A model generated the notes under the pieces. The model ran no database searches, was not told the DNA's origin, and saw nothing but the letters and a program-made list of their open reading frames with translations. Shown piece by piece: positions 4,895 to 60,906 of a stretch of 64,000 nucleotides of DNA. Each line of letters starts with the position of its first letter. The stretch's first letter is position 1. This DNA is from a bacterium HR35 (GTDB lineage Bacteria; Patescibacteriota; Minisyncoccia; UBA6257; HR35), in the NCBI GenBank assembly GCA_002898235.1, contig BEIL01000003.1, positions 2,264 through 66,263 of the forward strand, written 5' to 3'. The translations under genes were made by a program, and so were the position numbers.

Positions 4895-6256
4895 CTATTC
4901 ACAAAGCAAAAGCTTGGTTAATCTATTAAATTTTTCAACATCTCCACCAGAATAATAAATCAAATCTTCTATAACCCTAATACCTTCCCCCGAGTTTATG
5001 ACTTCTACTGCTAAATTTGCACCATATTTCAAATCATTAACTATTTCTAAACCTAAAAGATTTAAAGCTACTTCCATAGCTACAACCTGTTTAATACTTT
5101 CATTACTTTTACCAGCCAAAAGTTTAATAAATTCACTTAAATTTTCTATTGTATTTTGTCTACTTTCGATATACTTAATTGGCTTAAAACAAAAACCAAA
5201 ATCTTTCGGAGTAACTGTTTTAATAACTATTTGTCCTTTTATACTTTGAGCAATTTCAGTATTACCATTTATTGATACTTGATCAATAACTGGTTTACCA
5301 TTATAATTTTTACCTTGAATCACAAGTATATTTTTTTTAGGATATAATTTACTCAAGATAGCTAAGCATAATTGTGTTGAACCCCTTGTTAACCCATAAT
5401 TTATTAAATCAGCGTCAATTGGATTAACTATAGCTGCTCCACCAACCAGACCAGCGAAAACTTGCACATCATATAAACGACCATTATAAACTTGATTTAG
5501 CTTTGGTACAATTCTATTAATATCAAATATTCCAACTCCTGTTTTAAGCATAATTTCTATCATTTTTTCTATTGGCAAATTTAAATTTATACCCGCGCTT
5601 TCAAAAATATCGGTAGAACCAGTTACACTTGAAGTAGATCTAGAAGCTGTTTTTGTTATTAAAATATTTTTTCCTAGAACTTTACCTACTGCTGCGGTAA
5701 TAATAGCATTCATAGAACTAATGTTTAGTAATTTAGTTTCTTTTTTACCACTACCAGCTAAATTTATAACTTTGACTTCGCTAGTCAATTTTATCTTTCT
5801 ATCAATATCAAAATTATCTAAACTAAAAGCTGATTTTATTATTGCTAATCCATAATTAACTGCTATTTCTAGATTTTTAGAATTATTCATAAATGACCAT
5901 AAAGCGCCGTAAAAATAACCCATTAAAATATCCCTTTTTTGTGGGTCATTAGGATATGTAAGAATATCTAAAAATAAATTACCTATTTCAAGTGGAGACA
6001 AGATACCTCCATTAAGCAAAAAAACACATTTTTCGAGAATTTCGTTATTAGCAAATTTTCCATAATCTTTATTTGGAAATTCTTTGAATTTCGAAAAGTA
6101 ATACAAAAGGATAATACCTTCATAAACTTTAAAATTGCGATTAGAATTATTAATAAGTTTTAATATTAAATAAGCTTCTGCTTTATTGAAATCTTTACCA
6201 GAAGTTAATTTTTGAGTAAATTTAACGATTTTTTTTATAATATTTTCGTCCATCAT
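4895..6256 (-). CDS. Glycosyl-transferase family 3 fold protein (TrpD / thymidine-phosphorylase-like) with a divergent active site.
   Basis: NLAGSGKKETKLLNISSMNAIITAAVGKVLGK...SVTGSTDIFESAGINLNL aligns with TrpD D-t-c-GTGGDG-NTFNIST-AA-V-AA-G...KHGNR...SGSADVLEALG. The GTGGDG glycine loop is GSGKKE and KHGNR is TKTASR. Confidence 0.45.
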   Translation of the reverse strand: MMDENIIKKIVKFTQKLTSGKDFNKAEAYLILKLINNSNRNFKVYEGIILLYYFSKFKEFPNKDYGKFANNEILEKCVFLLNGGILSPLEIGNLFLDILTYPNDPQKRDILMGYFYGALWSFMNNSKNLEIAVNYGLAIIKSAFSLDNFDIDRKIKLTSEVKVINLAGSGKKETKLLNISSMNAIITAAVGKVLGKNILITKTASRSTSSVTGSTDIFESAGINLNLPIEKMIEIMLKTGVGIFDINRIVPKLNQVYNGRLYDVQVFAGLVGGAAIVNPIDADLINYGLTRGSTQLCLAILSKLYPKKNILVIQGKNYNGKPVIDQVSINGNTEIAQSIKGQIVIKTVTPKDFGFCFKPIKYIESRQNTIENLSEFIKLLAGKSNESIKQVVAMEVALNLLGLEIVNDLKYGANLAVEVINSGEGIRVIEDLIYYSGGDVEKFNRLTKLLLCE

Positions 6257-6263
6257 TAAAATT

Positions 6264-7700
6264 TCAACCTTTAATTACTCCAATTGGAACTAATTTGACT
6301 ATTTTTTTAGCAATGCCAATATTATGAACAACATCAACAACTTCTGACACATCTTTATAAGCTTCTGGTGCTTCTTCAGCAAGACCAGACATACTTCCAG
6401 CAGCAACTGAAATCCCTCTTGCTTCTAATTCTTTTTTTAATTCACTTCCTCTTATTTTTCTTTTTGCTTCTGCTCTGGACATCATTCTTCCTGCGCCATG
6501 TGGAGCTGAACCAAAAGAAATCTTTTTAGCTAATTCTTGGCCAATTAAAACATAACTACTTGTTCCCATTGATCCTGGAATTAGTGTTGGCTGACCAATT
6601 TGACGATATTTTTCAGGAAGCTCAGGGTGCCCTTGCCAAAAAGCCCTAGTTGCTCCTTTTCGATGAACTAATAATTTTTTATTATCGTATTCTTCAATCT
6701 TAACTATATTGTGAGCAATATCATAAACTTGTTTTAATTCAATTTCTTTACCAAAAACTTTTTTAAATGCTTTTCTAACTTCATAAGTAATAAGTTGCCT
6801 GTTAGTAAAAGCAAAATTAGCTGCAGCTTTCATTGCTGCTAAATAATCTTGACCAAGTTCATGACTATAAGGAAAATAAGCTAATTCTCTATCAACTAAA
6901 TCAATTCCTTGTTTATCTAAATATCTTAAAGCTTCTCGAATATAATCAGTGGCAACTTGATGACCTAAACCTCTTGAGCCACAATGAATTAAAACACAAA
7001 CTTTATTTTTTTCTAAACCCAATTTTTTACCAATTTCTTCATCAAAAATTTCAGCTACTCTTTGAATTTCAACAAAATGATTGCCAGCACCAATTGTTCC
7101 TAATTGATCCCTACCCCTATCTTTAGCTGTTTTCGAAACTTTATCAGCTTCAGCTCCTTCAATTTTCCCATAACTTTCAGTTGCTTCTAAATCTTCTTTT
7201 TCAGCATAACCAATTTCATAAAGCCATTTTGCTCCTTCTTCTAAAACTTTTTTCATTTCATCATTATTTAACTTCCAAAAACCTCCTCGACCAACACCAG
7301 AAGGAACCTCTTTAAAAATTTGCTCTGTTAACTTTGGTATTTTATCTTTAATTTCCTCATAATAAAAAGGAGAAACCAAAAGACGAACGCCACAATTGAT
7401 GTCATACCCACAAATCCCAGGAGAAATAATTCCCTCATTTGTATCAAAAGCAGCAACACCTCCCACTGGCGAGCCATAGCCTTCATGGATATCAGGCATT
7501 GCTAAGGAATATTTAAAAATACCAGGTAAAGTGGTTAAATTAACTAATTGCCATAAACTTTTATCTTCTAAAATATCAGCCAACATTTTTTCCGAAGCAA
7601 AAAGACGAGCTGGCACTTTCATATCTTCACGAAAACTTTGAGGAATTTCCCAAATATAATCTGAAATTTTAATTAAATCTTTTTTCTCAGGTTTCTTCAT
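6264..7700 (-). CDS. rtcB: RNA-splicing ligase RtcB.
   Basis: Signatures MPDIHEGYGSPVGGV and GTIGAGNHFVEIQ; 478 aa. Confidence 0.85.
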   Translation of the reverse strand: MKKPEKKDLIKISDYIWEIPQSFREDMKVPARLFASEKMLADILEDKSLWQLVNLTTLPGIFKYSLAMPDIHEGYGSPVGGVAAFDTNEGIISPGICGYDINCGVRLLVSPFYYEEIKDKIPKLTEQIFKEVPSGVGRGGFWKLNNDEMKKVLEEGAKWLYEIGYAEKEDLEATESYGKIEGAEADKVSKTAKDRGRDQLGTIGAGNHFVEIQRVAEIFDEEIGKKLGLEKNKVCVLIHCGSRGLGHQVATDYIREALRYLDKQGIDLVDRELAYFPYSHELGQDYLAAMKAAANFAFTNRQLITYEVRKAFKKVFGKEIELKQVYDIAHNIVKIEEYDNKKLLVHRKGATRAFWQGHPELPEKYRQIGQPTLIPGSMGTSSYVLIGQELAKKISFGSAPHGAGRMMSRAEAKRKIRGSELKKELEARGISVAAGSMSGLAEEAPEAYKDVSEVVDVVHNIGIAKKIVKLVPIGVIKG

Positions 7701-8344
7701 TTTTGATTAGCTAACTCTTTTTCTATTTCTTTTTCTAGAGAATCATAACTAGTTAAAGTTACCAACTTTCTATTAACAAAAAAACTTGGCGTTCCTTGAA
7801 GTCCAAACTTTAAAGCTTCACTCCTTTCATTTAGAATTTTTTCTTTTATTTCTTGGTTTTCAAAATCTTTTTTGAATTTATCTAAATCCAAATTCAGGGT
7901 TTTAGCATAGGAAAGAAAAAGTTCTTTTGGATTCGGAGAATTCTTCCATTCTGCTTGTTTTTCAAAAAGAAGGTTATGCATTTCCCAAAACTTTCCTTGT
8001 TTGCTAGCTGCTTCAGCTGCTTGAGCTGCCATTAATGCCTTAGGATGAATTTCGATTAAAGGTAAATGACGATAAATAAAAACAACTTCATCTTTATACT
8101 TTTCTTTTAGAGATTTCACTCTAGGATAAAAAGACTGGCAAGCTGGACATTCAAAATCTGAATATTCAATTACGACAATTTTTGCCTTATTTAAATCACC
8201 TAAAATGTGATCTGTTTCTCTAGGAAAAACATCATATTCTTTTTTAGCCAAGCGAAAACTGCTAACAAATCCCATAAAAACTAAAGAAAAAATAACTAAA
8301 CCAACAAAAATTGTAAAAAAAATGTTGTTTCTATTTTTATCCAT
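7697..8344 (-). CDS. DsbA-family thiol:disulfide oxidoreductase, membrane anchored.
   Basis: N-terminal TM helix, a thioredoxin-fold CPAC active-site motif (FECPACQSF) and the FIYRHLPL region. Confidence 0.65.
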   Translation of the reverse strand: MDKNRNNIFFTIFVGLVIFSLVFMGFVSSFRLAKKEYDVFPRETDHILGDLNKAKIVVIEYSDFECPACQSFYPRVKSLKEKYKDEVVFIYRHLPLIEIHPKALMAAQAAEAASKQGKFWEMHNLLFEKQAEWKNSPNPKELFLSYAKTLNLDLDKFKKDFENQEIKEKILNERSEALKFGLQGTPSFFVNRKLVTLTSYDSLEKEIEKELANQK

Positions 8345-8407
8345 TTTAAGAATAATTATAACAAAATTGCTTTCTTAAATCATCGGTTTTATAATAAAAC
8401 AAAAAGT

Positions 8408-9664
8408 ATGGATAAAAAGCTTTGGCAAATAATTGAAAAGGAAATAAAAAGACAAGAAGAAACATTAGAGCTTATACCTTCAGAAAATTTTGTTGATTTA
8501 GAAACTTTATTTATTGTTGGCTCACCTTTGATGAATAAATATGCTGAAGGCTATCCAGGTAAAAGATATTATCCGGGCAATAAATTTATTGATGAAATTG
8601 AAAATTTAGCTAAAGAAAGAGCTTTGAAAGCTTTTAAATTAAATCCGAGTGAATGGTCAGTAAATGTTCAGCCTTATTCAGGCTCGCCAGCAAATTTGGC
8701 TGTTTATTTAGCTTTAGCTGAACCAGGAGAAACAATAATGGGATTAAATTTATTTCATGGCGGTCATTTAACTCATGGTCATAAGGTAAGTTATACAGGA
8801 AAATTGTTTAAGGCAGTTCAGTATGGAGTTAATCCTCAAACTGAAACAATTGATTATGAAGAATTGCAAAAATTAGCTTTAGAATACAAACCAAAAATTA
8901 TTATTTCAGGAACAACCGCTTATCCAAGAGTAATTGATTTCAAAAGAATTGGAGAAATTGCTAAAAAAGTTGGAGCTTATCATGTAGCTGATATTGCTCA
9001 TATTGCTGGACTTGTTATTGCTGGCCTTCATCCCTCACCTTTTCCTTTTGCTGATGTAGTTACCATGACAACTCATAAAACTTTAAAAGGACCAAGAGGA
9101 GCAGTTATTTTTATGAGAAAGGAATTAGAAGAAAAAATTAATAAGTCTGTTTTTCCTGGACTTCAAGGAGGACCTCATATGCATACAATTAGTGGAATTG
9201 CTTATGCCTTTGGCAAAGCTTTAAAAAAAGATTTTCATAATTATCAAAAACAAATTGTTAAAAATGCAAAAGTTTTAGCTGAAGAACTTAAAAAAAGAGG
9301 TTTTAAATTATATACTGGTGGAACTGATAATCATCTAATGATGATCGATTTAAAACCCTTAAATTGGGACGGAAAAACAGCTGAAGAATTGCTTGAAAGA
9401 GCAAATATTGTTGCTAATCGCAATTCTTTGCCTTCAGATACTTCTCCTTTTAATCCAACAGGAATAAGATTAGGAACACCAGCGATCACTAGCAGAGGAA
9501 TGAAAGAAAAGGAAATGAAAATTATTGCTGAATTTTTTGAAAGAATCTTAATTAAAAAAGAAAAACCAGAAAAAATTAAAAAAGAAGTTATCAAATTAAC
9601 AAAAAAGTTTCCTTTGCCTTATTTGAGGTGGTTAAAGATGGCTAAAAAATTTATTCAGGAATAA
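8408..9664 (+). CDS. glyA: Serine hydroxymethyltransferase.
   Basis: LELIPSENF, the [15 protein letters not shown]-lysine region, 418 aa. Confidence 0.9.
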
Positions 9665-17142: not shown

Positions 17143-17379
17143 TCACTTAAAAATCCCAGAAATTATACTTGGTATTGTTAAAGCTAAAAAAATTATTACA
17201 ATTCCTATAATTAAAGGCAAAATTTTGGAATGAACTTCTTGAGCACCTTTTTGACCACCTGTCATATAACGAAAGCCATAATAAATCAAAACAATAACCA
17301 ATAAAAATAAAATAAAATTAAAAAGAATTCTAAAAAAATTCCAAAAAATTTTCAAAATTTCTGGCGAAATTAAATCCAT
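17143..17379 (-). CDS. Small two-helix membrane protein, one TM1-loop-TM2 unit of a pilin-like family (TrbC/VirB2-like architecture), no signal peptide.
   Basis: YMTGGQKGAQEVHSKILPLIIGIVII shares the loop/TM2 pattern with the five genes upstream. Confidence 0.45.
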   Translation of the reverse strand: MDLISPEILKIFWNFFRILFNFILFLLVIVLIYYGFRYMTGGQKGAQEVHSKILPLIIGIVIIFLALTIPSIISGIFK

Positions 17380-17380
17380 T

Positions 17381-18043
17381 TTATTCTAAACTAAAAAAGA
17401 ATCTTTCAATAAGTTTAACAATTGTAAAAGAAGCAAAGGAAATTATTATGCCAATAAAAATGTAAAGAAAATTTTTATGAACTTCTTGTGATTTTTCTGG
17501 TCTAGCAATATAGTTAAAACCAGTCCAAACAAGCAAAACAACTGAGGCTACAAAAACTGCTTTATATAAAAGACTAATAGCTAAATAAATTAAATAAATA
17601 AAACAAAGAGACCAACTTCCCAAGGGCAAGGTTGAGGTTTGAAAAACAGAAGGAATCTCTATTCCCCCGCAACTAATACTTTCTGGAGGTTCGTATTCTG
17701 GGAGCTGCTCAGCAAAAACAAAATTAATAAAACCGGCTCCTAAAATTGCAGCTATTAATTTAACAATAGCAAAAGCAAGTAAAGCGACTACTAAGCCAAT
17801 TATTGCCCATAAAATTCTTTGATTCACTTTCTGAACATTTTCAGATTTATCTCCTTGACTCATATAAAGAAAACCAGCCCAAGCAAGCATCAAAGCTGAA
17901 AAACCTACAGCAATTACGCTAACATAAACTAAAAGAGTTTCGAAAATAGAAAAAAAACAGTCAAGAAAACTTTTATCAGCACATAAAATTGGAGGCAAGC
18001 TAGGAAAAGTAGAGGTAGAAATTTGAGCTACCAATTCAAACAT
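17381..18043 (-). CDS. Membrane protein made of two tandem pilin-like TM1-loop-TM2 units (internal duplication).
   Basis: Unit a is AWAGFLYMSQGDKSENVQKVNQRILWAIIGLVVA; unit b is VWTGFNYIARPEKSQEVHKNFLYIFIGIIIS. Confidence 0.45.
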   Translation of the reverse strand: MFELVAQISTSTFPSLPPILCADKSFLDCFFSIFETLLVYVSVIAVGFSALMLAWAGFLYMSQGDKSENVQKVNQRILWAIIGLVVALLAFAIVKLIAAILGAGFINFVFAEQLPEYEPPESISCGGIEIPSVFQTSTLPLGSWSLCFIYLIYLAISLLYKAVFVASVVLLVWTGFNYIARPEKSQEVHKNFLYIFIGIIISFASFTIVKLIERFFFSLE

Positions 18044-18426
18044 TAAATTTGAAGATTAAAAATTCTAGCAATTAAAACTGAAACTGCCCAAGAAAGAATA
18101 GCTACTACTAAACCAATAAGAGCATACATCAATTTACCTCTAGCAGCTTTAACTTTCTCTTCACTTTCTCCGCTGCTCATAAATGTCCAAGCTGCCTGAA
18201 AAATACTAATTCCTGCAAAAACTACTGCCACAATAGCTAGAATAACAAAAACGCCCCTGGCTATACATAGAATTCTTCCAACCGGATCTTGAACTTGATC
18301 AATACATTCAGAAATTATAGGTATCCTTTCAACTGGTCCCTGGTCTTGAGCTAAAGTTAAATTAGAAGAAAATAATAAATTAAAAACTAGAAGAGAAATT
18401 AAAAGGATTGTAGATAATTTTTTCAT
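18043..18426 (-). CDS. Secreted/membrane pilin-like protein (signal peptide, Cys-pair ectodomain, TM1-loop-TM2); TrbC/VirB2-like.
   Basis: Signal peptide MKKLSTILLISLLVFNLLFSSNLTLA, CIDQVQDPVGRILC, then FAGISIFQAAWTFMSSGESEEKVKAARGKLMYALIGLVVAILS. Confidence 0.5.
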   Translation of the reverse strand: MKKLSTILLISLLVFNLLFSSNLTLAQDQGPVERIPIISECIDQVQDPVGRILCIARGVFVILAIVAVVFAGISIFQAAWTFMSSGESEEKVKAARGKLMYALIGLVVAILSWAVSVLIARIFNLQI

Positions 18427-18504
18427 TTAATTTTTTCAATAAATTTTTCGACCTTTGCTTTAAAAAGATTTTAATTAAAAAAATGTTAAAAATCAAAAAA
18501 AATG

Positions 18505-18903
18505 TTAAAATCCAGGACCACCTAAAATAAACCTAATAAGGGTAAAAACACCAGAAATTATAAGCAAAACAAAATAACCGACGACTGCTTCTTTAATATA
18601 TCTCCAACCTATATCCCTAGCATCTGGTTTAAAAGTTATTAAAAGAAACCAAAAACCACCAACTATTATTTCTAAAGTTAAAACAAAAGGTGCAATATAA
18701 AGAATAAAATTCCAAATTCTTTGAATAATCTCTAAAATACTAAAAAATTCACAAGCCTCTCTACCAAAAATTCCAGGCGGACAGACACTAATTGTTGCTT
18801 CTGTCCAAGTAACTACTACCTTACCGGGTTCTTTAATTTCAAGTTGGGCAAAAACTAAACTAAAACTTAAAAATAAAATTAAAAATAAAAAAAATTTTTT
18901 CAT
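18505..18903 (-). CDS. Secreted/membrane pilin-like paralogue.
   Basis: Signal peptide, CPPGIFGREAC, then VGGFWFLLITFKPDARDIGWRYIKEAVVGYFVLLIISGV. Confidence 0.45.
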   Translation of the reverse strand: MKKFFLFLILFLSFSLVFAQLEIKEPGKVVVTWTEATISVCPPGIFGREACEFFSILEIIQRIWNFILYIAPFVLTLEIIVGGFWFLLITFKPDARDIGWRYIKEAVVGYFVLLIISGVFTLIRFILGGPGF

Positions 18904-19331
18904 GGTCCAAAAATTATTCTTTCTATTTGGTCTTTAATTAAGTCGCCTAATAAAACTATAACAATTCCAACCGGAGTCCAAATAAGAATTCTCCAAGCAA
19001 TAGCAACATTTTTAAGACCAAAAAACGGAGTTGAAATTAAATAAATAGCTGCTCCAAAAAAGGCTATGACCATTAAAATCAAAGCTAAACTTTTAAGGAG
19101 TTCCAAAATATCAAAAGCACATCTTATTAACTTTTGTAGCGCAGAATTAGCTCCTTCTCCACATTTAAGAGTTGAGGCAAAGGGTTCTCTAAAAAAATTC
19201 AAAATAGAATAAAATGGATCTTCTGAACCTCCATTAGTTCCACCGCCTCCACCTGTTCCTGGTTCAAGAGCTCCAAGAGTATAATTAACCAAAAGAAAAA
19301 AAATAAATAAAAAAATAAAAAACTTCTTCAT
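18900..19331 (-). CDS. Secreted/membrane pilin-like paralogue with a Gly-rich N-terminal region.
   Basis: Signal peptide, GTGGGGGTNGG, CGEGANSALQKLIRC, then AFFGAAIYLISTPFFGLKNVAIAWRILIWTPVGIVIVLL. ATGA overlap with the neighbouring gene. Confidence 0.45.
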   Translation of the reverse strand: MKKFFIFLFIFFLLVNYTLGALEPGTGGGGGTNGGSEDPFYSILNFFREPFASTLKCGEGANSALQKLIRCAFDILELLKSLALILMVIAFFGAAIYLISTPFFGLKNVAIAWRILIWTPVGIVIVLLGDLIKDQIERIIFGP

Positions 19332-19336
19332 TAATC

Positions 19337-19693
19337 TTAATAGTATTTTAATTTCGGACCGAAAAATTCTAAAACTAAATCAAAAATAACACCAATAGAA
19401 AGAAGAAGGATATAACCGATAATAGCTGTTTTAATCATATCTTTTCCTCGGTTGGCTAAATTAGGATAAGGACCACCTAACATCCATAAAAAAGAACCAA
19501 TAACAGAAATGATAACAGCAAACCAAAAGGCAAACCAAATAACAAAAGTTAATAATCTTCTTATATTACTAAATAATTCTGGAAGCTGACAAGGATCGTG
19601 TTCGCATTTAACTAAACCTCCAGAAAAATCTTCTTGAGCTAAAACAAAATTTAAAAGAAAAAAAATAGTGAAAAAAATTATTATTTTATTCAT
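19337..19693 (-). CDS. Secreted/membrane pilin-like paralogue.
   Basis: Signal peptide, CEHDPC, then VIGSFLWMLGGPYPNLANRGKDMIKTAIIGYILLLSIG. Confidence 0.45.
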   Translation of the reverse strand: MNKIIIFFTIFFLLNFVLAQEDFSGGLVKCEHDPCQLPELFSNIRRLLTFVIWFAFWFAVIISVIGSFLWMLGGPYPNLANRGKDMIKTAIIGYILLLSIGVIFDLVLEFFGPKLKYY

Positions 19694-19694
19694 T

Positions 19695-20873
19695 TTAAAA
19701 TCTTAAATTTAATAATTCCAAAGCTCTTCTACCTTCATTAGGATTATTTTCCCAAACCTCTAAAACTTTTTCAAATTGAGAGTAATCATCTAAGGAAATA
19801 AAATCTAAATATGAAGAACCATACTCAGCGTTTTTTTGAAATATATCTTTAGGAGGTTCAATTGAGGAAACTTTAAAAATAGGAATTAAATCCATTTCTT
19901 CTATAAATTTCTCGTAGTTTTTTTCTTCTAAGAGCCATTTTAAAAATAAGATTGTTTTCTCATAATTAGAAGAATTTTTAGGAATAGCAAAATAGAATGC
20001 TTTAACAAAATTTTTACCAGTTGGAGGAAATGTTTCTAATGGATTTTGAGAAACCCTATAGCTTATTCGCGGATTTAATCTTAAAACGCTTTTTAAGTCT
20101 TCGTAAAAACCTATGAAAGCTCCTACTTTTTCATTAGCAAAAAGACTAATATCTTGACTGCCCAATCCTCTTTTTAAAGCAAAATTTGGTGACTTTTCGT
20201 CACTGTAATTATAGTAATCATTAATGGTTTGATCTAGGCTTTTTTTCTCTAAAGTTTTTAAAACTAAAATAATTTCTTTTTTATTTTTAACCTCATTAGT
20301 TCCTAAGGCAATTAAATAAAAATCTTTTATATTTTTGTTTTTAAAATCTGCTAAGAGATTATTAAGTTCAGAAATTGTTGTCGGAGGCTGGTAATTAAAA
20401 AAATCAAAAATTCTTTTATTATAGATAAAAGTTAAAGAATCGATATTGACTGGAACCCCTAAGTTTTCAATTTCGGTTTCTAAAAATAACGGCTTAGGTA
20501 AATTAAGATTTATTTCTTGTAAGTATTTTTTATTTCGATAGATAATATAATTAGGAGCATAAATCAAATCAGGAGCTTCTCCGCCAGCTAAAGCATAAAT
20601 AAAATCCTTTTCTAAATTATCAAAGTCTTTTTTGTAATAATCGAAATAAAGACAGTATTTTGAAGAAAAAGGAGAAATAAAGCTCAAAAATTTATCTTTA
20701 TCAAAATTTGCCCAAACTTTAAGATGAAGATTATAACAAGGAGTTTGTCTTTTAGGCTTATTTGGTTTAAATAAAATATAAGCAAAAACTAAAAGAACTA
20801 TAATTAAAATTATGATTTGATATTTAACATCAGTTAATATTTTGTTTTTAATTTCTTCTAAATTAAGGTTCAT
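19695..20873 (-). CDS. Hypothetical membrane-anchored extracytoplasmic protein (single N-terminal TM); may be co-transcribed with the pilin-like array.
   Basis: N-terminal hydrophobic helix IIILIIVLLVFAYILF and no recognisable catalytic motif; 2-nt gap to the array, ATGA overlap with the downstream methyltransferase. Confidence 0.3.
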   Translation of the reverse strand: MNLNLEEIKNKILTDVKYQIIILIIVLLVFAYILFKPNKPKRQTPCYNLHLKVWANFDKDKFLSFISPFSSKYCLYFDYYKKDFDNLEKDFIYALAGGEAPDLIYAPNYIIYRNKKYLQEINLNLPKPLFLETEIENLGVPVNIDSLTFIYNKRIFDFFNYQPPTTISELNNLLADFKNKNIKDFYLIALGTNEVKNKKEIILVLKTLEKKSLDQTINDYYNYSDEKSPNFALKRGLGSQDISLFANEKVGAFIGFYEDLKSVLRLNPRISYRVSQNPLETFPPTGKNFVKAFYFAIPKNSSNYEKTILFLKWLLEEKNYEKFIEEMDLIPIFKVSSIEPPKDIFQKNAEYGSSYLDFISLDDYSQFEKVLEVWENNPNEGRRALELLNLRF

Positions 20874-24471: not shown

Positions 24472-25536
24472 ATGAGTCAAACAATGGTTACTGAACAAAA
24501 TCAAGGATTAAAAGTGAAAGTTAAGAATATAACAATAGGTAGTATTTTGGAGGGAGTTGTTATCAGTAAGAAAAAGGGTGAGCTTTTTGTTGATTTGAGT
24601 CCTTTTGGAACAGGAAGGCTTTATGGGATTTTTTTCAAAGAGTGTGAGGATTTAGCAAAAAAAGTAAATGTTGGTGATAAAGTTGGAGTAAAGGTTGTTG
24701 GTTTAAATGATGGTTATGGAAATTTAGAAATTGTTCTTCAAGATACTTTTCAAATTAATCGCTGGCAAAAGATTTTGGAATATCAAAGAAATAAAACAGT
24801 TTTGGAATTGGAAATTAAAGAAGCTAATCGAGGTGGTTGGATTATTGAGCTTGAAGGCATTCAGGGTTTCATTCCTGTTTCTCAACTTTCGCCTGAATAT
24901 TATCCTCGAGTAAGTAATAATGATAAAGAGGCTATTTTAGAACATCTTAAAAAATTTGTTGGTCAAAAAATTAAATGCGTTGTTTGGTTAGCTGATCCTC
25001 AAAAAAACAAGTTAGTTCTTTCAGAAAAATTAACAAAAGCTGAAATTTATCAAAAGGTTTTAGAAAGTCTTCAGGTTGGTCAAATTTTAGATGTTAAAGT
25101 TGTTGGTATCAGTTCCTTTGGTGTTTTTGTTAGGTTTCATACTAACCCTGATATGGATGGTTTAATTCATATTATGGAAATTCCTCCAGAGTTAGCAAAT
25201 GACCTTCAAAAAAATTTTCCTTTAGGCAAAATCTTAAAAGCAAAAATTATTCAAATAAAACAAGATAGAGTTAATTTTTCTCTTAAAGATTTGAGGCCTG
25301 ATCCTTGGTTAATGGTTAAAGAATTTTATCGTGAAGGCTCTCAAGTCCAGGGGCTGGTTAAGGAAAAAAATAATATCTTTGGTGTAGCTGAAATTTCAGT
25401 AGGAGAGTATGGAAGTATTCAGGGTTATGTTTTTGAAGGAGTAGAAAAATTGGAGGTTAATAAGAGCTATAATTTTTTAATCGAAACTTTAAATCCCAAA
25501 GAAAAACATCTTGTTTTAAAACCGATTGATGCTTAG
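24472..25536 (+). CDS. rpsA: S1 RNA-binding-domain protein (short ribosomal protein S1 homologue, about 4 S1 repeats).
   Basis: Repeated G-x-V-x-G-x-V-(x)n-G-V/A-F-V S1 motifs (GSILEGVVISKKKGELFVDL, GQILDVKVVGISSFGVFVRF, and others). Confidence 0.6.
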   Translation: MSQTMVTEQNQGLKVKVKNITIGSILEGVVISKKKGELFVDLSPFGTGRLYGIFFKECEDLAKKVNVGDKVGVKVVGLNDGYGNLEIVLQDTFQINRWQKILEYQRNKTVLELEIKEANRGGWIIELEGIQGFIPVSQLSPEYYPRVSNNDKEAILEHLKKFVGQKIKCVVWLADPQKNKLVLSEKLTKAEIYQKVLESLQVGQILDVKVVGISSFGVFVRFHTNPDMDGLIHIMEIPPELANDLQKNFPLGKILKAKIIQIKQDRVNFSLKDLRPDPWLMVKEFYREGSQVQGLVKEKNNIFGVAEISVGEYGSIQGYVFEGVEKLEVNKSYNFLIETLNPKEKHLVLKPIDA

Positions 25537-28500
25537 AAATAATTATCTTAAATACTTTATTTTAGTTTTCTCTTTAATTCTTTTTTTCTCAATTTTATTT
25601 GTTGGTGAGAAAAAAATCAAAGAAGAGCAAAGCGTTTCTTTTCCTGTATTTTTAGAAAAGGTAAAAAATGGCGAAGTTAAAGAAATTAACTTAGAAAACG
25701 AAACTAATTTTACTTTTATTACTCAAGACAATAAAGTTTTTAATTCGAATAAGGATCCTAATGTTAGCTTTTGGGAAGTCTTCGAAAAAGAAAAAATACC
25801 TAAAGAAGTTTATCTGAAGATTAAAATTACTAAAAAAACAGAAGCTTCTTGGCTTCAACTTTTTCTTTCTTTTCTAATTAATGTTATTCCAATAATAATT
25901 ATTACTTGGTTTATTTGGCAGATTTTCAGACAGACGCAAAGAGGTACAAGTCAAATTTTTTCTTTTGGCAAATCAGGAATTAAAGTTTATAATCCCAATG
26001 ATCCAAATCGAATAACTTTTAAAGATGTAGCTGGCCTTGAAGAAGCTAAACAAGAACTTATGGAAGTTGTTGAATTTTTAAAAAATCCTGAAAAGTTTTT
26101 CAAAATTGGAGCTCGAATTCCTAAAGGAGTATTACTAGTGGGGCCGCCTGGAACCGGGAAAACAATGTTGGCTCAAGCAACAGCCTCGGAGGCTGGTGTT
26201 CCTTTCTTTTATATTTCTGGTTCTGAGTTTGTTGAAATGTTTGTCGGTGTTGGTGCTTCAGTAACTGGAGACACACCGATATTAATAAAAAGAGGAAACA
26301 AAATTAAGTTAACAACTATCGGTAAGTTTGTTGATAAATTTTATCAAGAAAATGAAAGTGGTTTTGTTAAATTTATAGACGGTTATGAAACTTTAGGTTA
26401 TGAACCACAAAGAAAAGTTTATTTTGGCAAGCCAATCTGGACAAATATTCGTGGCGTTTTTAGACATAAAGTCAATGAGATTTATGAAATTTATTTTAGA
26501 GGGGGGAAAATAAAAACAACTGGAGATCATAGCGTTTTTGTCAGAGAAAAAAATAGAATTATTCCTAAAAAAGTAAGTGAATTAAAAGTTGGTGATTGTT
26601 TAGTAAATTTACCATTTAAACGAAGAAGTGTTTTTGTTAAAGGAATAGGCACAACTCATAAGATTTCAACTTTTGATCTTGAAGAAAAAGAGATTTATTT
26701 AGATTTATATGAGAAAGAGTATAATAAAGCTTTGTTTAGTTACCAGTTTGCTTTAGAAAATAGAAATATTTTGAGTCAAGCGAAAATAGGAAAAATTTTA
26801 GGATTAGCGCAGACTACAATTAAAGATTGGCAATTAGGAAGGAGAAGGCCGAAAATATTTTCGAGCTTTAATATCTTTAGATTTAAAATCCCGCCTAAAA
26901 TAAAAGTGGATTTAGATTTGATGAAACTTCTTGGCTATTATGTTGCTGAAGGGAGAACAACAGATTATTTCACTCAATTTGTTTTTGGGATTCATGAAAG
27001 AGATTTGATTAAAGATTGTTCAAATTTAATTGAAAAGATTTTTAACATAACACCCCATATCAAAGATTGTCCTGAAACTAACTCCTGTCGAATTACTATT
27101 TACTCATCAATTATTAGCAAATTTTTTAAAAAGCACTGTGGTACTGGGGCCAAGAAAAAGCATATTCCTCCTTTCTTGTGGCAAATTCCCTTTCCTTATT
27201 TCAAATCATTTTTAGAAGGTCTTTACAGGGGTGATGGTTACATTACAAAAGAAGGAAAGTTAATTATTACCACAACTTCAAGAAGGTTAGCTTTAGAGCT
27301 TATTTGGCTTTCGGCTCTCCATGGAATTCAAGTTGGACTAAGAAAAACAAAATCGCCTGAAAGAAAAATAAGAGAGAAAATTCTTAAGCCATCTAAATAT
27401 TACCTAGTAATTTTTGGAAAGACATCTAATCCTTTTCTTAAAAATAAAAAGACTTCTCAACCTAAAAAACCAATAATAACAAAAATAATTAAAAAACCCT
27501 ATGATGGTTATGTTTATGACCTTTGTGGTTGTGATAATGAAGCATTTTTTGGAGGAGAAAAACCTATTTTACTTCATAACAGTCGCGTCCGTGATGCATT
27601 TTCTGTTGCTAAAAGAAATCAACCTTGTTTAACAGGTGATACAATTATTACTTTAAGCAATGGAGAAGAAATTACTATTAAAGAGATTTATGAGAAAAAA
27701 TTGATTGGCAAAGAGGTTTTAGCTTTTGATGAAAATCTTAATCTTAAAACCGCAAAAATAATTGGTGTTAGCAAAACACCCGATCAAGAAATATTAAAAA
27801 TATCTACAATCATCGACACCATAAAATTAACTCCCGATCATCTTTTACCTACTTTGAAAGATGGCAGGTTAGAATGGGTAGAAGCCAAAGAACTAAAAGA
27901 GGGAGATTTCATAGCTTATCCAAAGAAAATTCCTGAAGAATTTAGGATTCAATCAATAAGAACTCTAACTTTGATTCCTGAAGAAACAAGAATTTACTTC
28001 AAAAACAATTGTCTGCCTAAAATATATGGAAATAAAAAGTATTATCATTCAGTTAAATTAAAAGAAATATATTTAGATAAAATTGACGAAGAAAACATTG
28101 CTTGGATTGCTTTAGGCAAAGGTGGTTTTACTGATTCTTATCTCTACAGAATACCAAAATATTTGAATGAAGATATTCTTTATCTTAAAGGCTTAATAGA
28201 TGGTGATGGTTCTTATCATAAAAACAAATTCAATATTACTTTTGTTAATACTGAGTTGTATCTTCACCAAGAAGTTAAAAAGATTGTTTTAGATAATTTT
28301 GGAATTTCTGCGAAGACTTATAAAAACAAAAAATATTATCGCAATCTTCCTCAAGGGAAACCACCTCAAAATCTTAAAGATTGTTATACCACTCATATTA
28401 ATAACAAGTTAGTTAAAATCATCCTGAAAAACATTGATGAGATTCTTCTTTCTTTACCAAACAATCTTATAGCTGCTTGGATAAGGGGCATTTTTGATAG

Positions 28501-30151
28501 TGATGGTTATGTAGCCAGTATCAAAAATCATCCCAAGATTGTAATTACTTCTACTGACGAAACGTTGAACAAAAAAATTAGATCTGCTTTATTAAGATTA
28601 GGAATAATTGGCTATTGCACTGCTTCTAATAATTTTGGTAATATTGAAATTACAGGAAAGGAAAATATTAAACGTTTTAGAGAAATAGTTGGCTCTAATC
28701 ATCCTAAGAAATTGCAGAGATTAAAAAATTTAAATTTAGAAGGAGTAAGATTTTGGCGCTTAAATCAGATTCCATTAGGTTTGTTGCTTAAAGAAGCTAG
28801 GATTTCTTTAGGGATAGGGCAAAGGAGTTTTAAAAATGGGCATATGATTTCTTGTTGGGAAAGAAATATTCATTTACCATCTTTAGAGAATTTGGAAATA
28901 AAAGTTAAAGAAATGGAGAAAATAATTAGTGAAAAAAATTTATCTCCAACTCAAAGCTTTGAAAAATTAAAATCATTTGTCTACGGTGATGTAAGTTGGG
29001 TAAAAATTAAAAAAATTGAAAAAGTAAATCAAAAAGAAGACGTTTATGATCTTATTTTAGATAAATATCATAATTTCATTGCTAATAATCATTTTGTTCA
29101 TAATTGCATTTTGTTCATTGATGAGCTTGACGCTATTGGAAAAATAAGAGGAGCGGGAATTACTGGCGCTCATGAAGAAAGAGAGCAAACATTAAATCAA
29201 ATTTTAGTTGAAATGGATGGTTTTGAAAAAGGAACAAAAGTCGTTGTTTTAGCGGCGACAAATAGACCTGATGTTCTTGATCCAGCTCTTCTTCGTCCAG
29301 GAAGATTTGACCGCAAAATTGTTTTGGATTTGCCTGATATTAAAGCTAGAGAGGAAATTTTAAAAATTCATTTAAGAGATAAAAGAGTTGGTAAAGTTAA
29401 TTTAAGGCAAGTAGCTGAAAGAACTCCTGGTTTTTCTGGAGCTGATTTAGCTAATTTATGTAATGAAGCTGCAATTTTAGCAGCCAGAAGAAACAAAGAA
29501 TTTATCACTCAACAAGAACTTTTAGATTCAATTGAAAAAGTTTTATTAGGTCCAGAAAGAAAAACAAAAGCCTATTCAAAAAAAGAAAAAGAAATTGCTG
29601 CTTATCATGAAGCTGGCCATGCCATTGTTGCTCATTATTTGCCTTATACTAATCCAGTTCAAAAAATTTCAATTATTTCTCGCGGTCGAGCAGGTGGTTA
29701 TACTTTAAAAACACCCCTTGAAGACAGAAGCTTTTATTTTAAGAAAGAATTTTTAGATGAATTGGCTTCAATGCTTGGTGGTTATGCTGCTGAAAAATTA
29801 ATTTTTAACGATATTACTACTGGAGCCAGTAATGATTTAGAAATTGCTACTGATTTAACTAGACAATTAGTAACTAAATTTGGAATGTCAGAAAAACTTG
29901 GTCCAATTTCAATCTCCCAAAAACCAAAAGAATTTGTTTTAGAAAAAGAGTACTCTGAAAAAACAGCTGAACTTATCGATGAAGAAGTAAAAAATATTAT
30001 TCACCAAGCATTAGAAAGAGCAACAAAGGTTTTAGAAATTAAAAAAGATAAATTAGAAAAAGTTGCTCAAGTTTTAATCAAAAAAGAAGTGATTGAGAAA
30101 AAACAATTTGAGAGATTAGTTGGCGAGAAAAAAGGAAGTTTAAATATTTAA
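25526..30151 (+). CDS. ftsH: ATP-dependent zinc metalloprotease FtsH, interrupted by two in-frame inteins; the mature extein is about 607 aa.
   Basis: Walker A GPPGTGKT, the FVEMFVGVGA | SRVRD | CILFIDELDA extein blocks, the HEAGHA zinc site and an N-terminal TM anchor; a 1541-aa ORF. Confidence 0.9.
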   Translation: MMLRNNYLKYFILVFSLILFFSILFVGEKKIKEEQSVSFPVFLEKVKNGEVKEINLENETNFTFITQDNKVFNSNKDPNVSFWEVFEKEKIPKEVYLKIKITKKTEASWLQLFLSFLINVIPIIIITWFIWQIFRQTQRGTSQIFSFGKSGIKVYNPNDPNRITFKDVAGLEEAKQELMEVVEFLKNPEKFFKIGARIPKGVLLVGPPGTGKTMLAQATASEAGVPFFYISGSEFVEMFVGVGASVTGDTPILIKRGNKIKLTTIGKFVDKFYQENESGFVKFIDGYETLGYEPQRKVYFGKPIWTNIRGVFRHKVNEIYEIYFRGGKIKTTGDHSVFVREKNRIIPKKVSELKVGDCLVNLPFKRRSVFVKGIGTTHKISTFDLEEKEIYLDLYEKEYNKALFSYQFALENRNILSQAKIGKILGLAQTTIKDWQLGRRRPKIFSSFNIFRFKIPPKIKVDLDLMKLLGYYVAEGRTTDYFTQFVFGIHERDLIKDCSNLIEKIFNITPHIKDCPETNSCRITIYSSIISKFFKKHCGTGAKKKHIPPFLWQIPFPYFKSFLEGLYRGDGYITKEGKLIITTTSRRLALELIWLSALHGIQVGLRKTKSPERKIREKILKPSKYYLVIFGKTSNPFLKNKKTSQPKKPIITKIIKKPYDGYVYDLCGCDNEAFFGGEKPILLHNSRVRDAFSVAKRNQPCLTGDTIITLSNGEEITIKEIYEKKLIGKEVLAFDENLNLKTAKIIGVSKTPDQEILKISTIIDTIKLTPDHLLPTLKDGRLEWVEAKELKEGDFIAYPKKIPEEFRIQSIRTLTLIPEETRIYFKNNCLPKIYGNKKYYHSVKLKEIYLDKIDEENIAWIALGKGGFTDSYLYRIPKYLNEDILYLKGLIDGDGSYHKNKFNITFVNTELYLHQEVKKIVLDNFGISAKTYKNKKYYRNLPQGKPPQNLKDCYTTHINNKLVKIILKNIDEILLSLPNNLIAAWIRGIFDSDGYVASIKNHPKIVITSTDETLNKKIRSALLRLGIIGYCTASNNFGNIEITGKENIKRFREIVGSNHPKKLQRLKNLNLEGVRFWRLNQIPLGLLLKEARISLGIGQRSFKNGHMISCWERNIHLPSLENLEIKVKEMEKIISEKNLSPTQSFEKLKSFVYGDVSWVKIKKIEKVNQKEDVYDLILDKYHNFIANNHFVHNCILFIDELDAIGKIRGAGITGAHEEREQTLNQILVEMDGFEKGTKVVVLAATNRPDVLDPALLRPGRFDRKIVLDLPDIKAREEILKIHLRDKRVGKVNLRQVAERTPGFSGADLANLCNEAAILAARRNKEFITQQELLDSIEKVLLGPERKTKAYSKKEKEIAAYHEAGHAIVAHYLPYTNPVQKISIISRGRAGGYTLKTPLEDRSFYFKKEFLDELASMLGGYAAEKLIFNDITTGASNDLEIATDLTRQLVTKFGMSEKLGPISISQKPKEFVLEKEYSEKTAELIDEEVKNIIHQALERATKVLEIKKDKLEKVAQVLIKKEVIEKKQFERLVGEKKGSLNI
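26258..27580 (+). mobile_element. Intein 1 in FtsH (441 aa; Ser1 ... His-Asn, +1 Ser) with a LAGLIDADG-type homing-endonuclease domain.
   Basis: Starts with SVTGDTPIL (block A with Ser as the nucleophile) and ends ILLHN|SRVRD. LAGLIDADG-like motifs are LLGYYVAEGRT and LEGLYRGDGYI. It is inserted between FtsH GVGA and SRVRD. Confidence 0.75.
27626..29104 (+). mobile_element. Intein 2 in FtsH (493 aa; Cys1 ... His-Asn, +1 Cys) with a LAGLIDADG homing-endonuclease domain.
   Basis: Starts with CLTGDTIITL (classic block A) and ends FVHN|CILFIDELDA. LAGLIDADG motifs are LKGLIDGDGSY and WIRGIFDSDGYV. It is inserted immediately before the Walker B region. Confidence 0.8.
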
Positions 30152-30155
30152 AAAA

Positions 30156-31256
30156 TTAAGGACCAAGATTTAGACAAACATATCTAATTGGGCCAGTAGT
30201 TGAACAAGTGCTACCAAAAGAACATTTTTCCGTACCGCTTACTCCTCCAGGATCATAAGCTTTAACACAAATCTCTTTTGCTCCTGTTGTATAATTTCCA
30301 TTTATTACCCTACTATTTAAATCAATTGAAGCTATTTTTCCGCTTACATACATATCTCCATTAACATATAGTCTAAATGGATCTGGATTTGTTATTCCGA
30401 TGCCTATGTTACCATTATTTCCTTTAACTGTAAAAACTTCGCTGCCACGGTCATTAGTTACTCTAAATCTTGAATCTTGACCGGTATCTATTCTAATGGT
30501 GGTAATTGCATTCCAATCCCCTACTTCTTCATTGCCAATTATAAATTCATTTGTATCTACATAAATGTATTTATTAAAAGCATCTAAGAAATTTATCTTT
30601 TTTCCGGAATTACCAGAAAAACACAACATATACGGATCATAATTACAATAATAAATATCATCGCCTATTCCTATAGTTCCTATTACTTGTAATTTCTTCT
30701 GAGGGTTCATTGTTCCAATGCCAATATTTCCATTATTTAAAATTGTCATTAAATGCTTTACATCATCGCCTCCAGGTGGATCTGGATCATTAACAAATGA
30801 TGTTTTTCCATAAGAAGGAGCAGTATTTGTAATCCAAAATAATCCATCATATCCACCATCAAACCACATATCTCTTGAAAAATCACCAAATCCTATTTTC
30901 CCAACTGCTTCATTATCGCTAACAATTTCAAATTTTGTTCGCGGATAAAGAGTTCCTACTCCAACATTGCCTCCGTAAGGATTAAGAGATAAATTATATG
31001 GTTTGCCGGTTTCATCTTTGCTCTGAATAATACCATAGTCAGCGTAATTTGATAATAATTTATTATCCTCAGAAATTGGTTCGTTAGGAGTAAGATAGAT
31101 ATTTTGATTTAATTTAAGATTATCATCTGACGATATTTTTGTTCTTTTGCCTATAAAGTAATTTTTAAAGGAATCAAAAGAAGGTCTATTAAAATAATAA
31201 AAATAAACGAAAATAAAAATAAGCCCTCCTAAAAAAATCAAATATTCTTTTTTCAT
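30156..31256 (-). CDS. Secreted repeat protein (tail-fibre-like G-N-V/I-G-I-G-T-x-x-P repeats), putative adhesin.
   Basis: N-terminal anchor MKKEYLIFLGGLIFIFVYFYYF; repeats GNVGVGTLYPRTKFEI, GNIGIGTMNPQKKLQV, GNIGIGITNPDPFRLYV; a Cys-rich C-terminus. Confidence 0.5.
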   Translation of the reverse strand: MKKEYLIFLGGLIFIFVYFYYFNRPSFDSFKNYFIGKRTKISSDDNLKLNQNIYLTPNEPISEDNKLLSNYADYGIIQSKDETGKPYNLSLNPYGGNVGVGTLYPRTKFEIVSDNEAVGKIGFGDFSRDMWFDGGYDGLFWITNTAPSYGKTSFVNDPDPPGGDDVKHLMTILNNGNIGIGTMNPQKKLQVIGTIGIGDDIYYCNYDPYMLCFSGNSGKKINFLDAFNKYIYVDTNEFIIGNEEVGDWNAITTIRIDTGQDSRFRVTNDRGSEVFTVKGNNGNIGIGITNPDPFRLYVNGDMYVSGKIASIDLNSRVINGNYTTGAKEICVKAYDPGGVSGTEKCSFGSTCSTTGPIRYVCLNLGP

Positions 31257-31291: not shown

Positions 31292-32614
31292 CTAGTACAA
31301 ATCTGGCCAGCAAATCCCTAAATTTGTTGAAGGAATAACTTGTCTAGAAATTCCGGGTCCGCTCCATTCAAGAAGCAATCTCTCACCACCTGCATTCTCA
31401 TAATGGTCTATTCTTAATGGATACCAACCGGGAGAAGAAAAGGTATAATTAGCAGAATACGTGGTAGCGCCTTGATCTCTCCATTGATCCACTAAGATTT
31501 GCCAGTTAACCCACAACCTAACACCATCATCGCTAGTTACATAAAAAGTATAGGTTCCTGCAACTGGTATATAAACACAACCATAAACTCTAAGCGACCA
31601 ACCATCAGCTTTTCCAAGGGGATTAAGATCAGTAAAATCTATAGTTGGTTTTACTATTCTCATAATTTTATCTTTAAACGAAAGATATGGATTTGGATCA
31701 TAGCTCCCAAAACCTTCAACAATAATTCCTCCTTTTTGCACTATTCTTCTCGGAGGCCATCCTGGAGAATCTAAAAAAACAGCATCAACTAAATTTCCTT
31801 CATAAATTGTTAATTTAGTAGTCGGTGTCGTCGTCCCGATGCCGATATTATTATTAACATCGATTACTATTGCAGGATTATTAAAATTTCTCGTAAAATC
31901 ACGTGCTATTTTGAATTTGTCTCCATCGGCGTTATCTATTCCCATTATCCAATCTCTTACTCCTGGAATAGCAAAATGAAGCATAGGATTAGCGGTTGCT
32001 CCGCCCCAAGCAGTAGAAATAGCTATTCTAACATCAGCCGAAGGTCCAGTATTATCGTTCCTTATTAAAAGTTGCAATTCTGAGTTAGAATTTGAAGCTA
32101 TATGAACTTTTTGTTCTGGTGTCGTCGTCCCGATGCCGACGTTGCCAGGAAAACTATAATTTCCTCCACCTGTGTTTGCTCCAAATTGGCCTGAAGAAAC
32201 ATTAGCTGCATTGATTGTTCCTAAAAAAGTATCAGCTTTAACATTACCAGCAACATGTAAAGTTGTTGTAGGTGTTGTTGTTCCAATTCCTAATCTTTTG
32301 TTTGTATTGTCCCAAAAGAGATTGTTGTCACCAGAAATAGTTGATGCTCCTGTCCAAAATGCTACTTGACCAGCTGAACCCGAGCCGCCTATTCCTAAGC
32401 TACCAGTATATCTTACTAAAACATTTTGGGTTGAGGAGGTCATTACTAAATAACCAGCTCCAGGCCAAGTTGTTTCTCCCCAATTAAGATAAGGTAATGG
32501 CTGGCAGTAAGCACCTTGTCCTAAAGATTCTTTGGGTAAAAAAAAGTAAAAAATAATGTTGGTTAAAGCAAATAAAAGCGAAAGAGCAAGAGATATTATT
32601 AACCCCTTTTTCAT
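31292..32614 (-). CDS. Secreted repeat protein with three IGIGTTTP repeats and a C-terminal PA14 domain; putative carbohydrate-binding adhesin.
   Basis: Repeat 1 is LGIGTTTPTTTLHVAG, repeat 2 is NVGIGTTTPEQKVHIA and repeat 3 is NIGIGTTTPTTKLTIYEG. A C-terminal YTFYVTSDDGVRLWVNWQ...YPLRIDHYENAGGERLLLEW is PA14-like. Confidence 0.55.
   Translation of the reverse strand: MKKGLIISLALSLLFALTNIIFYFFLPKESLGQGAYCQPLPYLNWGETTWPGAGYLVMTSSTQNVLVRYTGSLGIGGSGSAGQVAFWTGASTISGDNNLFWDNTNKRLGIGTTTPTTTLHVAGNVKADTFLGTINAANVSSGQFGANTGGGNYSFPGNVGIGTTTPEQKVHIASNSNSELQLLIRNDNTGPSADVRIAISTAWGGATANPMLHFAIPGVRDWIMGIDNADGDKFKIARDFTRNFNNPAIVIDVNNNIGIGTTTPTTKLTIYEGNLVDAVFLDSPGWPPRRIVQKGGIIVEGFGSYDPNPYLSFKDKIMRIVKPTIDFTDLNPLGKADGWSLRVYGCVYIPVAGTYTFYVTSDDGVRLWVNWQILVDQWRDQGATTYSANYTFSSPGWYPLRIDHYENAGGERLLLEWSGPGISRQVIPSTNLGICWPDLY
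31824..31845. repeat. 22-nt direct repeat ggtgtcgtcgtcccgatgccga (copy 1); copy 2 at 32118..32139 in the same frame encodes G-I-G-T-T-T-P.
   Basis: Exact 22/22 nt identity 294 bp (98 codons) apart inside CDS 31292..32614. Confidence 0.8.
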
Positions 32615-50257: not shown

Positions 50258-50269
50258 AATTATTTAACT

Positions 50270-60825: not shown

Positions 60826-60898
60826 CGGGGTGTGGCGCAATGGCTAGCGCGCTGGCATGGGGTGCCAGAGGTTGCGGGTTCGAGTCCCGCCACCCCGA
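60826..60898 (+). tRNA. tRNA-Pro (anticodon GGG).
   Basis: Manual cloverleaf: acceptor cggggtg/caccccg, anticodon stem ctggc/gccag with loop atggggt, T-loop ttcgagt. Confidence 0.7.
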
Positions 60899-60906
60899 AA
60901 AAAATA

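Follow-up and report, generated by a model that had tools for sequence, protein, structure and literature searches.

What is built by a row of small, mutually related membrane proteins encoded among the housekeeping genes of a bacterium? The question is raised by bacterium HR35, a Parcubacteria-like hot-spring metagenome lineage, in a 64-kb stretch of contig BEIL01000003.1 (hereafter the window). Six consecutive open reading frames (ORFs) occupy its minus strand at positions 17143-19693 and encode, in the order of transcription, proteins of 118, 143, 132, 127, 220 and 78 aa, named here by their length: p118, p143, p132, p127 (identical to HRbin35_00462 of bacterium HR35), p220 (with its halves, p220N and p220C) and p78. 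We assign them with high confidence to the Patescibacteria-type pilins of type IV secretion systems (T4SS; Pfam family PF18895). We further consider it probable that this chromosomal array of pilins serves a monoderm-type T4SS and a host-contact structure, with a division of labour between its members.

One module in seven units

The array runs from p118 (19337-19693), its first gene, through p143 (18900-19331), p132 (18505-18903), p127 (18043-18426) and p220 to p78 (17143-17379), its last; p220 comprises an N-terminal unit (17699-18043, aa 1-115) and a C-terminal unit (17381-17698, aa 116-220) fused to it in frame. The six minus-strand genes and seven units counted in an earlier, first-pass annotation of this DNA were thus recovered, together with all the peptides that it had quoted (three loop/helix motifs, four Cys pairs and the GTGGGGGTNGG tract). 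All seven units share one module, two transmembrane (TM) helices with a short basic loop between them. Hydropathy gave a signal-like N-terminus plus two TM segments in p118, p143, p132 and p127, two TM segments in p78 and twice two in p220, in agreement with the signal peptide and Cys-pair ectodomain previously ascribed to four of the proteins. A Cys pair stands ahead of the first hairpin helix in these four (CEHDPC in p118), and also in both halves of p220, where there is no N-terminal signal peptide; p143, the most divergent paralogue, has in addition a variable Gly-rich tract, and p78 is the minimal unit, a two-TM hairpin with neither signal peptide nor Cys.

The paralogy of these genes is better than chance. 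In BLASTP comparisons p78, p220N, p220C and p127 matched one another at E values between 1e-4 and 5e-11, except p78 against p127 (0.02); p118 matched p132 (E 2e-7) and p220N (E 3e-3); and p143 had no significant pairwise match to other array members. Identities between paralogues are about 20-39%. The internal duplication of p220 was seen both in the protein (p220N against p220C, E 2e-10) and in the DNA, where 17409-17455 and 17754-17800 are 70% identical at an offset of 345 nt, that is 115 codons. An independent hidden Markov model (HMM), made from 55 single-unit homologues of 12 other genomes only, with the window left out, scored all seven units between 16.8 and 67.3 bits (p220N 67.3, p118 39.4, p78 36.5, p132 29.3, p143 16.8). 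For each of the four weakest units (p143, p118, p132 and p78), none of 500 local shuffles keeping the hydropathy pattern reached the observed score, the maximum for p143 being 10.5 bits. This independent profile, together with conservation in a sister lineage (described below), points to p143 as a divergent but genuine member. When all window ORFs of at least 45 aa were scanned with the family profile, only these six were returned at E < 0.1.

Family assignment and predicted topology

PF18895 (T4SS_pilin; gathering cutoff 26.6 bits) was the best match for all six proteins. Three of them exceeded the cutoff: p220 with 47.5 bits (two stretches, the better one at aa 36-97), p127 with 30.9 and p132 with 27.4; p118 (24.1 bits, E 3.8e-5), p78 (22.8) and p143 (16.1) scored below it. 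Among ten locally shuffled sequences one gave a T4SS_pilin match, at 15.2 bits, and none matched TrbC; consequently the PF18895 score of p143, about 16 bits, is at noise level, and the scores of 23-47 bits are above it. The Pfam search suggested in the first-pass annotation, which had named PF04956 (TrbC/VirB2; cutoff 27.9 bits) along with the T4SS pilin families, therefore came out mostly on the side of the latter: only p220 passes PF04956 (30.0 bits, at aa 159-212), p78 scored 21.5, and p118, p143, p132 and p127 had no match at E ≤ 1. Against a third family, NF045849 (equivalog cutoff 40 bits), p220 scored 38.8, p127 34.0 and p78 28.3, all below the cutoff, with no match for p118, p143 and p132; by these scores the array proteins appear related to the family without being members of it. 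A wider set of 61 array members, taken from the window and 12 related genomes, includes 59 matches to PF18895, 12 to PF04956 and 47 to NF045849 (the 12 and the 47 at E ≤ 1e-3), the best E for NF045849 being 4.8e-11.

It is topology that discriminates VirB2-type from VirB3-type identity. In all seven units the loop between the helices carries a net positive charge, as it does in 43 of 62 family members, only 7 having a net negative one; ahead of the first helix the net charge is negative. The signal peptides and the ectodomain Cys pairs indicate that the N-terminus lies outside; on this placement the linker between the units of p220, Cys pair included, would be outside too, an internally consistent arrangement. 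The predicted topology is thus N-out, basic loop in and C-out, that is, of the VirB2 type. In the AlphaFold model of p127 two long antiparallel helices (residues 48-84 and 89-122; core predicted local distance difference test score, pLDDT, 71-82) make up the hairpin, and G105, in the second helix, is invariant in both an 8-sequence and a 61-sequence alignment. A DsbA-like thioredoxin of 215 aa is encoded at 7697-8344, 9 kb from the array, and could form disulfides in pilin ectodomains. Type IV pilus pilins were considered and rejected: there was no N_methyl (PF07963) match at E ≤ 1, no class III signal peptide and no G|F-T-L-x-E motif.

The proposed pilin array and its rivals

Same-strand arrays of 3-8 family members were present in 12 of 13 related loci, with fused multi-unit proteins of 200-420 aa among them. 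The pilin relatives in reference genomes are labelled Patescibacteria, Woesebacteria, Blackburnbacteria and Saccharibacteria, apart from five metagenome-assembled genome (MAG) records labelled 'Gammaproteobacteria'; for a conserved window protein, the homologues that bear a name are from Patescibacteria, Parcubacteria and Pacebacteria, the exceptions being a 'Candidatus Methanomethylia…' MAG and a 'bacterium'. The five 'uncultured Gammaproteobacteria bacterium' MAG records (loci L003, L005, L006, L009 and L014) hold Patescibacteria-type pilin genes, in arrays in four of them, and share their neighbours with Patescibacteria loci; the organism labels are probably wrong. In three Parcubacteria relatives a protein of 279-328 aa with a PF18895 domain (L020 16055-16894, L021 14835-15809, L022 14836-15822) lies beside yidC/rnpA, which are origin-proximal genes, together with unannotated proteins of 366-368 and 207-212 aa; one of these three PF18895 proteins also carries a YkuD L,D-transpeptidase domain.

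Arrays of this kind, termed 'VirB2-like pilins' in Patescibacteria (PMC12102498, PMC10633639, PMC12857230), were described between 2023 and 2025, and the present locus is a further instance. A 2025 survey of 3,035 Patescibacteria genomes, based on PF04956 and PF18895, counted 441 'VirB2 arrays' of 2-11 pilin genes each in 383 assemblies, with a mean identity of 25% (PMC12102498); in the accessible part of its supplements the bacterium HR35 genome is not mentioned. The array of Southlakia epibionticum ML1 lies inside an essential T4SS cluster and is itself essential (PMC10633639); its pilins number six according to a later review (PMC12857230).

By the mechanism that we propose, the four signal-peptide precursors would be exported by Sec and cleaved after A/G at -1, so that three of the mature proteins would begin with Gln; all units would enter the membrane as helical hairpins whose two ends face outwards and whose short basic loop is cytoplasmic, and the Cys pair, just outside the first helix, would form a disulfide. 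A VirB4/VirB6-type monoderm machine, similar to the mating pair formation systems of class MPF-FATA and presumably encoded elsewhere in the genome, would extract the units from this membrane pool and build from them a pilus-like filament, or a conduit, where these epibiotic bacteria touch the host cell that they need. The paralogues would have distinct roles, one as the major subunit and others as accessory subunits, including the covalently fused double unit, and are unlikely to be interchangeable antigenic variants. A possible pilus on a monoderm, serving exchange with the host, has been raised in a review (PMC12857230).

Several results weigh against this mechanism. In no patescibacterium has a pilus made of such proteins been observed, and the reviews speak of a possibility (PMC12857230). 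VirB4, VirB6, VirB8, a relaxase and other T4SS assembly genes were looked for among the scanned window ORFs of at least 90 aa and none was found. Authentic VirB2, VirB3 and VirD4 were taken from pTiC58; comparison by hhalign of the 61-sequence profile with VirB2, alone or as a 6-sequence alignment, gave probabilities of 0.3-0.4% (E 0.14-0.18), no better than the VirB3 control, a weak negative given the shallow VirB2 profile (Neff 1.9; the 120 VirB2 homologues among those listed are too alike for a deep one). Searches with hmmsearch against the pTiC58 VirB2 and the 6-sequence VirB2 alignment were negative as well. The confidence of the p127 model is only moderate (mean pLDDT 69), its hairpin fold matches thousands of unrelated structures and is hence non-diagnostic, and the family profile found nothing among PDB sequences at E ≤ 10. 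The VirB2/TrbC identity first suggested for the array is accordingly kept in its pilin part, in view of the PF18895 top match in all six proteins, the passing of PF04956 by p220 and the topology, and the link to canonical VirB2/TrbC appears weaker than the family name suggests.

With a generic fold, and with no T4SS gene within 17 kb on one side and 44 kb on the other, the proteins could instead be bitopic or hairpin envelope proteins that are independent of any T4SS (for membrane organisation, as a channel, or holin-like), the Pfam name being a misnomer here. Such an explanation would fit the position of the array amid housekeeping genes (gyrA, the methyltransferase and a solute-binding protein upstream; tRNAs and rpoB/C downstream), and it would also fit the array neighbours of related loci, as Pfam scans of 20 large ones returned no T4SS domain. 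It is nevertheless unlikely, because of the T4SS cluster around the S. epibionticum array (PMC10633639), the pilin genes near virB4 in 1,135 of 1,948 assemblies (PMC12102498), the sequence links to TrbC and to conjugal-transfer proteins of integrative and conjugative elements (ICEs), and the adjacency of the array, in nine of the 13 related loci, to a polytopic family with a VirB6-like layout.

The proteins of this polytopic family have 484-1119 aa and consist of a signal/anchor, an ectodomain, 5-6 TM segments and a cytoplasmic tail (L002 16398-18032, L004 6181-8625, L006 3619-5382, L008 13656-15110, L010 4468-7599 and 707-3418, L012 1913-5092, L013 4006-7365, with cut copies in L011 and L014). 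Their resemblance to VirB6, by topology only, is a guess; they gave no Pfam match even at E 0.5 and have no homologue in the window.

Similarly unlikely is that the array encodes inner-membrane subunits of the VirB3/PrgI type in a monoderm T4SS, two-TM anchors of VirB4 that would never leave the membrane. The 47 of 61 members matching NF045849, a small two-TM protein of Mycoplasma ICEs, may agree with this, since small two-TM proteins of mycoplasma ICEs have been described as VirB3-like (PMC12857230), as would the absence of detectable VirB2 similarity and the fact that pilins are normally lacking in monoderm T4SSs. However, no array protein matched a VirB3 model (the family PF05101 among them) even at E ≤ 1, and 12 of the 61 members match TrbC/VirB2. 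Four of the six proteins carry a cleavable-type signal peptide followed by a Cys-pair ectodomain; judged by charge, the loop is inside and the termini are outside, which is the opposite of VirB3; and multi-copy arrays are a trait of VirB2, not of VirB3 (PMC12102498).

Returning to the pilin array, its evolutionary rate could be estimated from one sister contig (L016; 3.9 kb, from another sample), in which the order is identical: the methyltransferase end, a solute-binding protein gene of 392 aa, then genes of 120, 132, 132, 127, 220 and 73+ aa. Divergence at synonymous sites between the two is unsaturated (dS 0.40-0.57). By the Nei-Gojobori method, the ratio of non-synonymous to synonymous divergence (dN/dS) was 0.14 for p118 (86% identity to its orthologue), 0.08 for p143 (94%), 0.11 for p132 (90%), 0.34 for p127 (71%), 0.14 for the whole of p220 (85%) and 0.07 for p78 (93%), a range similar to the value of the neighbouring solute-binding protein gene (0.12; 90%); only p127, the fastest-evolving member, is clearly faster. 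All six are real genes under purifying selection, and the paralogues are anciently diverged and individually maintained. The rapid evolution that had been read into the array is contradicted by these values and by the conserved gene order. The Gly-rich tract of p143, GTGGGGGTNGG, once taken as reminiscent of VirB2, lies inside an indel of 11 residues (LEPGTGGGGGT) missing from the L016 orthologue, so that it is not a conserved feature.

Conservation of each paralogue between sister lineages makes distinct, non-interchangeable roles most likely, and argues for distinct subunit roles against a fast-diversifying surface-variation cassette (antigenic or for host range), of the kind proposed for Bartonella and Anaplasma VirB2 paralogues. 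Such a cassette is unlikely. In its favour, the paralogues are only about 20-39% identical, the rate of p127 is about three times that of its neighbours, the indel of p143 falls in an exposed Gly tract and no positional orthology is detectable between distant arrays; against it, the sister lineage keeps all six genes, in the same order and at conserved lengths, every dN/dS is well below 1 (five of six at or below 0.14), all copies are complete genes with their own starts, and there are neither silent cassettes nor recombination repeats. Each of these three rival explanations is thus disfavoured by specific results.

Setting of the array and known systems

The window is a low-GC (~29%) housekeeping segment of the chromosome (rpoB/C, gyrA, an intein-bearing ftsH, dnaK/J/grpE, recA, dnaG, rpoD, dnaX). 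Upstream of the array and on the same strand lie gyrA, an S-adenosylmethionine (SAM) methyltransferase gene and the gene of a membrane-anchored solute-binding protein (SBP; 19695-20873, minus strand; SBP_bac_8 50.5 bits, N-terminal TM segment at aa 11-40). Both neighbours named in the first-pass annotation are therefore present, its 'membrane protein' being this SBP, upstream of the array. The SBP gene ends 1 nt from p118 and is probably co-transcribed with the array; no SBP homologue was found beside the arrays of 13 more distant loci. At five junctions the neighbouring genes overlap or lie no more than 5 nt apart (1, -1, -4 or 5 nt), and the only intergenic gap within the array, of 78 nt (18427-18504), separates p132 from p127. 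This gap contains a promoter-like element, TTGATT-17-TAAAAT (18468-18496, minus strand), ahead of p127-p220-p78. Its identity to the corresponding gap of the sister contig is 87%, compared with some 60-69% at synonymous sites, and the element is kept there as TTGACT-17-TAAAAT (shared form TTGAyT-17-TAAAAT). Counts of promoter and terminator patterns were not above shuffled expectation in this AT-rich DNA, the gap included, and the element is a candidate internal promoter which may raise the expression of p127-p220-p78 or set the subunit ratio.

Downstream, tRNA-Leu follows 17 nt past p78, then tRNA-Glu, tRNA-Ser, rpoB and rpoC. A mobile island, of which the adjacent tRNA genes could be a sign, was rejected: neither att-like repeats nor an integrase are present, the base composition is uniform without any shift, and the array lies 5' of the tRNA genes.

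A VirD4-like ATPase of 498 aa (50270-51766), 31 kb from the array, had been put forward as a partner of the pilins. It matches TrwB_AAD_bind (35.6 bits, cutoff 20.5), TraG-D_C (26.1, cutoff 22) and T4SS-DNA_transf (24.3, cutoff 20.1), and has a Walker A motif, GKTGTGKT, from residue 34 and a C-terminal CxxC...CxxC motif; no TM segment is predicted, hence no N-terminal anchor, and there is no BLASTP similarity to VirD4 of pTiC58 (E 0.18). It has at least 8,000 homologues, the 120 listed being 48-74% identical. Three relatives (L020, L021 and L022, at about 5600-9490) keep the same block as the window: a Sigma70_r4 helix-turn-helix (HTH) protein, DUF8128, the ATPase, dnaG, rpoD and dnaX. In all of them, as at 47854-51766 here, the ATPase comes after a Sigma70_r4/HARE-HTH protein and a single-TM DUF8128 protein and before dnaG-rpoD-dnaX, beside the hsp20-hrcA-grpE-dnaK-dnaJ block. 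The HTH-DUF8128-ATPase set looks like a phylum-wide housekeeping trio, not a T4SS coupling protein, and according to the survey such ATPase homologues occur in nearly all genomes, mostly far from virB4, the ML1 copy being non-essential (PMC12102498). A dedicated partnership of this ATPase with the pilins is not supported.

Other features of the window stand apart from the array. The ftsH gene (25526-30151; 1,541 aa) holds two inteins with homing-endonuclease domains inside its AAA module (Intein_splicing twice, LAGLIDADG_3, Hom_end). Next to it, 30156-31256 (366 aa) and 31292-32614 (440 aa) encode adjacent secreted or anchored proteins with repeated N-[IV]-G-I-G-T-x-x-P motifs, the second with a C-terminal PA14 carbohydrate-binding domain; both may be surface adhesins, and the pair adjoins genes for a cupredoxin-like protein and an M50 protease. 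A 622-aa ORF (60832-62700), whose protein has no Pfam match, begins with a GTG inside tRNA-Pro (60826-60898), and its real start is probably a downstream ATG (MEKFKLEG...).

Among known systems, the closest are the PF18895 arrays of other Patescibacteria (S. epibionticum ML1, and the 'Sec-secreted array' of Nanosynbacter lyticus TM7x): same family, same phylum, tandem same-strand layout, signal peptides and a paralogue identity of about 25%. The ML1 array has six genes, as here; however, it lies within the T4SS cluster, whereas the HR35 array is detached from T4SS genes and sits between gyrA and the tRNA-rpoB/C block, and one of its members is a fused double unit. Among the arrays published so far, the greatest abundance is in Microgenomatia and Saccharimonadia, in contrast to the Parcubacteria-like lineage of this locus. 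With canonical VirB2/TrbC (the Agrobacterium T-pilin, RP4 TrbC) the array shares the size class, the signal peptide with two helices and a basic loop, and the predicted N-out/C-out topology, in addition to the p220 score just over the PF04956 cutoff and the 12 of 61 matching members. It differs from them in the extracytoplasmic Cys pair, the monoderm host, the multiple divergent copies and the lack of an adjacent virB operon; no profile-level similarity to Agrobacterium VirB2 was detected, and the T-pilin and TrbC cyclise head-to-tail. Anaplasma, Ehrlichia and Bartonella likewise have divergent tandem pilin genes in host-dependent bacteria (PMC12102498), but these are PF04956 members in diderms, thought to vary under immune pressure, whereas the copies described here are under purifying selection.

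The remaining comparison is with Mbov_0395/MMCAP2_0565, the 'pilin-like conjugal transfer protein' of Mycoplasma ICEs (NF045849), which shares the 80-residue two-TM module; both systems occur in genome-reduced bacteria that lack a wall or are monoderm and that have machinery of the MPF-FATA type. In Mycoplasma a single, ICE-borne copy serves conjugation, whereas the HR35 array is chromosomal and multi-copy and has no relaxase or ICE context. According to the 2025 survey, VirB2-like pilins are absent from monoderm MPF-FATA systems, mycoplasmas not being mentioned (PMC12102498). Judged from this sequence link, the monoderm machinery may have brought the pilin module with it; the origin of the pilins from diderm VirB2 was left open by the 2025 survey (PMC12102498). 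We advance only tentatively, as a doubtful possibility, the combined proposal that the six paralogues co-assemble as a heteropolymeric pilus or conduit on a monoderm and that the module descends from a two-TM protein of the Mycoplasma MPF-FATA type and not from diderm VirB2; VirB2/TraA pili are essentially homopolymeric, unlike such a structure.

Much of the uncultivated diversity of bacteria belongs to the Patescibacteria, whose cells live attached to hosts; the T4SS with its pilin array is essential in the one species tested. The added value of the present locus is modest, refining the picture rather than changing it: it contributes a Parcubacteria-like hot-spring example in which the array, with a fused double unit among its members, is uncoupled from the machinery genes. 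The purifying selection on each paralogue argues for a division of labour between subunits over antigenic variation, and the link in sequence to the Mycoplasma ICE family NF045849 bears on the origin of these pilins.

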